Shown here: positions 14,954-15,031 of the stretch, piece after piece
Layout of the letters: each line of letters opens with the position of its first letter
Position numbering within the stretch: the stretch's first letter is position 1
Assembly: GCF_044324785.1 (NCBI RefSeq)
Contig: NZ_CP172127.1
DNA length: 64,000 nucleotides
DNA from: Escherichia coli
GTDB taxonomy: Bacteria; Pseudomonadota; Gammaproteobacteria; Enterobacterales; Enterobacteriaceae
Strand: one strand, 5' to 3'
Position numbers and translations under genes: made by a program
Notes under the pieces: generated by a model
Told to the model about the DNA's origin: nothing
What the model saw: the letters and a program-made list of their open reading frames with translations, nothing else
Database searches by the model: none

Positions 14954-15031
14954 AACCTCCCTACACCGGGGTACTGCATTTTTTTTGTAGTACCCCGTAT
15001 AATGTGAGGCTTTTAACAGGGAGAGGTCCGC

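Follow-up and report, generated by a model that had tools for sequence, protein, structure and literature searches.

The DNA analysed here, called the window throughout, is a 64,000-nucleotide stretch of Escherichia coli. The list of open reading frames (ORFs) places RNase BN (on the minus strand), elaA, elaB, menF, and menD near the site of interest, which is the spacer between elaB and menF. This spacer is identical to that of K-12 MG1655, whose genes run on the minus strand, and window positions equal 2395675 minus the K-12 coordinate. When a 701-nt query across the site is compared with 5426 complete E. coli genomes, 5421 of them give a match, under genes annotated elaB and menF, and the hairpin element is found in 5421 of the 5426 as a single copy per genome that is at least 95% identical. 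RefSeq annotation carries no regulatory feature over the elaB-menF stretch, so that a terminator and a promoter could be added. The features discussed are as follows.

14648..14953, plus strand: elaB coding sequence, 101 aa, with TAA at 14951-14953 (ORF list; named elaB in 5421 E. coli genomes and in K-12)
14949..14959, plus strand: 5' arm of a lower stem, GTTAAAACCTC, pairing with 15006-15017; includes the elaB stop codon and is Escherichia-specific
14957..14962, plus strand: CTCCCT, a candidate anti-Shine-Dalgarno (anti-SD) tract, complementary to the menF Shine-Dalgarno (SD) core AGGGAG (15018-15023) and nearly invariant across genera
14967..14978, plus strand: 5' arm of the hairpin, CGGGGTACTGCA, from the fold and the inverted repeat; GGTACT (14970-14975) is invariant in 33 orthologous sequences
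14979..14985, plus strand: U7 loop, from the fold; as DNA, a T-run at about -32 to -26 of the menF promoter
14986..14997, plus strand: 3' arm of the hairpin, TGTAGTACCCCG, from the fold and the inverted repeat; ACCC (14992-14995) is invariant
14998..15003, plus strand: TATAAT, -10 of the proposed menF promoter; 6/6 by sequence, G/TATA(A/C)T in 33 of 33 aligned orthologues, start 8 nt downstream
15001, plus strand: in vivo 3' end of the elaB and elaA-elaB mRNA (...CCCCGUAUA-3'), from Term-seq and SMRT-Cappable-seq
15006..15017, plus strand: 3' arm of the lower stem, GAGGCTTTTAAC, from the fold and the inverted repeat; spans the menF start site
15011, plus strand: mapped menF transcription start, K-12 2380664(-), from SMRT-Cappable-seq; TTT at 15011-15013 is invariant
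15018..15027, plus strand: menF SD region, AGGGAGAGGT, by sequence; its G-rich core is conserved
15032..16327, plus strand: menF coding sequence, GTG start, 431 aa (ORF list and K-12 annotation)

The central element is the hairpin at 14967-14997 (CGGGGTACTGCATTTTTTTTGTAGTACCCCG), which divides into CGGGGTACT, GCATTTTTTTTGT, and AGTACCCCG and is followed directly by TATAAT. A preliminary description made from the sequence alone had given it a 9-bp stem; this is correct, and three further pairs (G14976·U14988, C14977-G14987, and A14978-U14986) extend it to 12 bp, including one G·U, around a loop of seven U's. The RNA of this segment folds at -20.9 kcal/mol, compared with -4.95 +/- 2.19 for 200 dinucleotide shuffles (z -7.28), none of which folds as well. 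The antisense RNA folds less stably, at -15.3 kcal/mol. In the 64-kb window, the arm pattern is found a single time, with none expected.

Does such a hairpin amount to a terminator? The preliminary description had pointed out that the T-run sits inside the loop and that the terminator would be noncanonical, and the tail bears this out. After the stem comes TATAATGT (UAUAAUGU as RNA), with only 4 U's in 8 nt, which falls short of the U-tract of about 7-9 nt that directly follows the stem of an intrinsic terminator, and a scan requiring at least 5 T's in 8 made no call at 14967-14997. Lacking a U-tract, the hairpin is therefore not a canonical intrinsic terminator. The terminator scan did call a smaller hairpin upstream, ACCTCC/GGGGT followed by a T-run; this candidate was rejected because the mapped 3' end is 15001 and not near 14985. 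An Rfam scan of 14000-16000 returned chance-level snoRNA matches only (E of at least 0.9).

Term-seq and start mapping over 14950-15040 had been proposed as the check on this interval, and published tables place both events within it, the 3' end at 15001 and the start at 15011. In the Term-seq table of Adams et al. 2021 (PMC7815308 supplementary file 1), elaB has a “primary” 3' end at K-12 2380674(-), corresponding to window 15001, and the flanking sequence printed there finishes ...CCCCGTATA. The end is thus A15001, four bases past the stem and within TATAAT. That file has three entries for this end; the values in two of them are 54,112 and 221,851, which we infer to be the LB OD 0.4 and OD 2.0 tabs, and the rise is consistent with stationary-phase induction of elaB. 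By Term-seq, 15001 is the dominant elaB 3' end. It reappears at 2380674 in SMRT-Cappable-seq (Yan et al. 2018, PMC6131387 Supplementary Data 1), where it is called a “novelTTS” of transcripts beginning at 2381565, the elaA start. Among the 30 elaA-start reads, 10 stop at 2380674 and 16 run at least 50 bp beyond it; none ends 1-50 bp past it, and the median extension is 199 bp (PMC6131387). A read-through operon, elaA-elaB-menF, is also in that list (PMC6131387). The stop at the elaB hairpin is therefore leaky, with about 38 to 40% of full-length elaA-start reads ending there and the rest entering menF. The TERMITe 2025 supplement has no entry at the elaB-menF locus. An in vivo 3' end at the base of a hairpin is what an intrinsic terminator would give, but here it lies 4 nt from the stem rather than the usual 7-9; a stable stem without a U-tract, with a precise steady-state 3' end immediately downstream, is what defines a protective stem-loop.

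Transcription of menF begins almost at the same place. TATAAT at 14998-15003 adjoins the last base of the stem and ends 28 nt short of the GTG at 15032, just where it had been placed from the sequence. The start at 2380664(-) heads the operons b2265|b2264 and b2265|b2264|b2263, that is, menF-menD(-menH) (PMC6131387). In this one dataset, the start at 15011 lies 8 nt after TATAAT, inside the 5-9 nt expected for sigma-70. A lone TATAAT is within chance, as the window has 11 on both strands compared with 20.9 +/- 4.7 in shuffles (an under-representation); what makes this copy significant is its conservation together with the mapped start. The best -35 hexamer 16-18 bp upstream is TGCATT or CTGCAT, matching at 2 of 6 positions, with no TG extension, and because of this poor -35, the promoter scan called no promoter at the menF start. 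What occupies the upstream region instead is the hairpin DNA, a 31-bp palindrome of arms and T-run that covers -44 to -14. The elaB 3' end and the menF start are only 10 nt apart, so that both signals anticipated from the sequence are present; the two overlap physically and may, as had also been suggested there, be coupled in function.

The Cappable-seq supplement of Ettwiller 2016 has no entry near K-12 2380664. Could 15011 be a processed 5' end, made by RNase E-type cleavage, rather than a true start? It conceivably could, since the bases GC|UUU at 15009-15013 agree with RN|WUU, the motif at which RNase E cleaves. Weighing against processing, however, SMRT-Cappable-seq selects triphosphate ends, and a perfect, conserved -10 sits at the right distance. 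As a separate observation, an RNase E cut of read-through RNA at 15009-15013, followed by 3' trimming, would also give the 15001 end.

How widely is this arrangement kept? A scan for ElaB with one genome per species gave 80 loci, of which 47 have menF directly downstream. A spacer with GGGTACTGC...GCAGTACCC flush to GTATAAT is found in Escherichia, Citrobacter, Salmonella, Enterobacter, Lelliottia, Leclercia, and Silvania, as well as in Phytobacter, Kosakonia, Trabulsiella, Yokenella, Huaxiibacter, Pseudenterobacter, and Intestinirhabdus. Folded individually, 32 of 33 distinct orthologous regions from about 15 genera form the hairpin at -13 to -22 kcal/mol (z -3.6 to -7.8), the one exception being Pluralibacter, whose hairpin is degenerate. 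Inner stem and loop sequences vary between genera while pairing is kept. The outer six pairs (GGGTAC / GTACCC) never vary and so do not distinguish a constraint on RNA from one on DNA. In the loop, T14980-14982 are invariant or nearly so across genera and the remainder varies. The same degree of conservation in the 33 orthologues is seen for the SD core, the -10, and the start-site TTT. RNAalifold on a MAFFT alignment recovered no more than 4 pairs, all invariant, since loops of differing length throw the inner stem out of register; per-sequence folds, an alignment-free duplex test, and a covariance-model alignment were therefore used. In the last of these, 77.6% of cells pair, compared with 40-49% when partners are slid.

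More distant Enterobacterales have no hairpin, yet they keep TATAAT 28-38 nt before menF, which argues that the -10 is older than the hairpin. Cedecea davisae (L057) and Enterobacter sp. R1 (L011) are without the GGGTAC hairpin and have canonical terminators, a hairpin plus T9, in the elaB-menF gap about 15-20 nt before a conserved ACGTATAAT. Since these T9 terminators replace the hairpin, stopping the transcript looks like a conserved need that is met differently in different lineages. Judging from these sequence comparisons, both a stop and a start are conserved needs at the elaB-menF position. In Yokenella regensburgei (L062, at about 1875-1900), an extra perfect hairpin, GAACCTGCCTCAGGCAGGTTC, lies between the menF start-site region and the Shine-Dalgarno; the other genera are without it.

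How do these pieces fit together? The reading that we favor, with a probability of about 0.78, is a compact boundary of two transcription units, in which the hairpin is the stem-loop that defines and protects the 3' end of the elaA-elaB mRNA and TATAAT at 14998-15003 is the -10 of a menF promoter with its start at about 15011. RNA made from the elaA and elaB promoters would fold at 14967-14997 into the very stable 12-bp hairpin, which would set and protect the steady-state 3' end at A15001 as part of a leaky stop. The same DNA would form the upstream half of the menF promoter, which has no recognisable -35.

By what route does the elaB 3' end arise? We lean slightly toward the hairpin acting mainly as a barrier to 3'-to-5' exonucleases for RNAs first ended further downstream. 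Dar and Sorek 2018 (PMC6061677) describe stable stem-loops without a U-tract at precise 3' ends, which block PNPase and RNase II once transcription has terminated diffusely further downstream. In keeping with a barrier, most polymerases pass the hairpin and the read-through RNAs end about 200 nt into menF; a mild C-over-G stretch lies at 15080-15200, 80-200 nt downstream. Against it, PMC7815308 supplementary file 2 lists no bicyclomycin-sensitive Rho region closer than 800 nt to the 3' end. The nearest Rho termination region, at K-12 2379281, is 1.4 kb downstream, and menF-promoter transcripts could mask a bicyclomycin effect. The lack of a Rho-sensitive region within 800 nt also speaks for a weak factor-independent terminator, in which the transcript would be released in the A/U-only UAUAAU after the stem and then trimmed to A15001. 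To this somewhat doubtful account belong the very stable, GC-rich stem, the six post-stem bases that are all A or U, the exact read ends with none in the next 50 bp, and a partial stop of about 38%, as for a poor terminator; relatives without the hairpin, moreover, have canonical intrinsic terminators in the same gap. What it must explain away is a tail of 4 U's in 8 nt that the terminator scan passes over, a mapped end 4 nt from the stem instead of 7-9, and the finding that 3'-end hairpins without a U-tract are protective structures and not release sites (PMC6061677).

The surroundings of the hairpin suggest other roles. An 11-bp lower stem pairs GUUAAAACCUC with GAGGCUUUUAAC, and the extended fold at 14945-15035 reaches -36.2 kcal/mol (z -4.05); in E. 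albertii and Escherichia sp. MOD1, this pairing is reinforced (CCTCAC:GTGAGG). Lower stem, internal loop, and 12-bp upper stem together resemble the R1.1-type signals of phage T7, at which RNase III makes a single cut on the 3' side of the internal loop, and 15001 does fall in the 3' half of the internal loop, as it should if RNase III makes the 3' end. The lower stem, however, is specific to Escherichia, with the hairpin and TATAAT conserved far more widely, and it contains the elaB stop codon at 14951-14953, where a terminating ribosome would open it; for these two reasons, we rate RNase III cleavage as very improbable. The inverted repeat might instead act at the DNA level as an operator, with a dimeric regulator bound over the -35 and spacer of the menF promoter; the RNA hairpin would then be incidental. 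The never-varying outer arms suit an operator, as do the three invariant loop T's, which are unusual for a plain RNA hairpin, and a position from -44 to -14 is typical of a repressor. It becomes improbable in light of an RNA 3' end that maps exactly at the base of the hairpin and an inner stem that changes yet keeps the hairpin. A literature search found nothing on menF regulation at this site, and to our knowledge no regulator motif has 12-bp arms spaced 7 bp apart. Finally, there is a negligible chance that the palindrome is accidental or a REP/BIME or ERIC copy without a local role: z -7.3 and conservation across genera rule out an accidental palindrome, and a REP/BIME, ERIC, or other mobile repeat is ruled out by one copy per genome, uniqueness in the window, and the lack of an Rfam match.

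Upstream of the hairpin, CTCCCT marks the 5' onset of conservation. What keeps it? One tentative answer is that CTCCCT is an anti-SD, so that in elaB read-through RNA a long-range stem enclosing the hairpin and the promoter would silence menF translation, and RNA from the menF promoter would be translated. The menF start at 15011 lies between CTCCCT and the SD, as in a fold-back arrangement, so only read-through RNA could form this stem. Across genera, the tract and its cognate SD give duplexes of 8-17 bp, and cognate duplexes average -17.4 kcal/mol versus -15.2 for non-cognate ones (permutation p ~5e-5). The partners are ACCCUCCCU with AGGGAGGGU in Salmonella, where the 9-bp pairing is perfect, AAUCCCCUCCC with GGGAGGGGAUU in Phytobacter, CUUCUCCC with GGGAGAAG in Leclercia, and GAACCUCCC with GGGAGGUUC in Trabulsiella; loci of this kind include L055, L038, L010, L009, and L070. 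Flanking pairs change together, as in AACC:GGUU of Enterobacter versus GACC:GGUC of Huaxiibacter. In the covariance-model alignment, 5 of 8 flank pairs have changes on both sides; the core is constant, and no pairing emerges here when RNAalifold is run on the MAFFT alignment.

According to partition-function calculations, pre-start RNA should pair completely with the SD in Salmonella, Phytobacter, Kosakonia, Silvania, Leclercia, Trabulsiella, Pluralibacter, and two further lineages, and the SD should be free in the menF-promoter transcript of the same lineages; in Salmonella, P(unpaired) is 0.00 in the long RNA versus 0.66 in the native one. For the E. coli window, the SD is unpaired with a probability of 0.55 in the long RNA and 0.56 in the native one, and its probability of pairing with pre-start RNA is 0.13; shuffled upstream segments pair with the SD just as well as the real one (z -0.09). 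Equal SD accessibility in the long and short RNA and this duplex z of -0.09 thus leave sequestration unsupported in E. coli. On these models, anti-SD pairing thus appears to be strong in Salmonella, Phytobacter/Kosakonia, Silvania, Leclercia, and Trabulsiella and to have decayed in Escherichia, where a shortened spacer would put the C-rich tract within the footprint of the terminating ribosome.

Inside elaB there is also an antisense ORF, 14808-14945(-), of 45 aa, whose GTG is 11 nt after GGGAG and which is kept only in some Escherichia. The idea that its SD, GGGAGG, causes the conservation of CTCCCT was rejected because the start codon and the ORF are absent in most genera, and going by sequence it is probably not a gene. 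In Silvania confinis (L013), CTCCCTGCCAA occurs twice upstream of the hairpin in a tandem-like arrangement, duplicating the anti-SD-like tract.

If true, the anti-SD would insulate menaquinone synthesis from stress-induced, RpoS/OxyR-driven transcription of elaB, and in Salmonella and the other genera it would be a simple, testable form of translational insulation between adjacent chromosomal genes. It would also be a chromosomal counterpart of the fold-back inhibition of IS10 and IS50, in which read-through transcripts from outside are said, in work from Davis, Simons and Kleckner in 1985 and Schulz and Reznikoff in 1991, to sequester the ribosome-binding site of the transposase. In both, a sequence complementary to the ribosome-binding site precedes the native start, and the inhibitory stem is predicted to form only in read-through RNA. 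Unlike the transposon genes, menF belongs to a chromosomal housekeeping operon. A terminator-like hairpin and a promoter lie inside its long-range stem, pairing in Escherichia is weak, and the effect on translation is a prediction.

How does the element compare with known classes? Like the protective 3' stem-loops of Dar and Sorek 2018 (PMC6061677), it has no U-tract, a precise adjoining 3' end, and a mild C-over-G bias downstream; unlike them, it is without a nearby bicyclomycin-sensitive region, and it abuts and overlaps the promoter of the next gene. With intrinsic terminators, it shares a GC-rich hairpin just past the stop codon, a 3' end at its base, and partial read-through, but its T-run is in the loop, no U-tract follows, and the end is 4 nt from the stem. 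The menF promoter, for its part, resembles sigma-70 promoters that combine a consensus -10 with a weak or absent -35 in its perfect TATAAT, its start 8 nt downstream, and its conservation across genera. It differs in a best -35 of 2/6, the lack of a TG extension, and a 31-bp palindrome over the -35/spacer. The element is a 3'-end hairpin without a U-tract, fused to the promoter of the next gene; it is visible in published genome-wide maps, and we did not find it discussed individually. Literature pairing elaB or menF with a terminator, a promoter, ProQ, or Hfq likewise held nothing specific to it.

Overall, the elaB-menF boundary, though ordinary, is compact and well conserved. The same 40 bp hold both a hairpin resembling a terminator and the promoter of the following gene, and the RNA 3' end is inside the -10 hexamer. 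Such an overlap limits the evolution of either signal, and because the tail must stay TATAAT, it may explain why the hairpin has no U-tract. There is also a practical side: deletions or tags at the elaB stop codon, such as Keio-type deletions or the Flag constructs of ElaB studies, likely disturb menF expression.

One further observation concerns the menF-menD gap at 16328-16415, where window 16394 (K-12 2379281, minus strand) bears two differing annotations. SMRT-Cappable-seq has it as the transcription start of menD-menH-menB (PMC6131387), and Adams et al. 2021 (PMC7815308) list it as a bicyclomycin-sensitive “Rho termination region” with a Rho score of 2.5. It seems that a Rho-sensitive site and an internal promoter fall together there.
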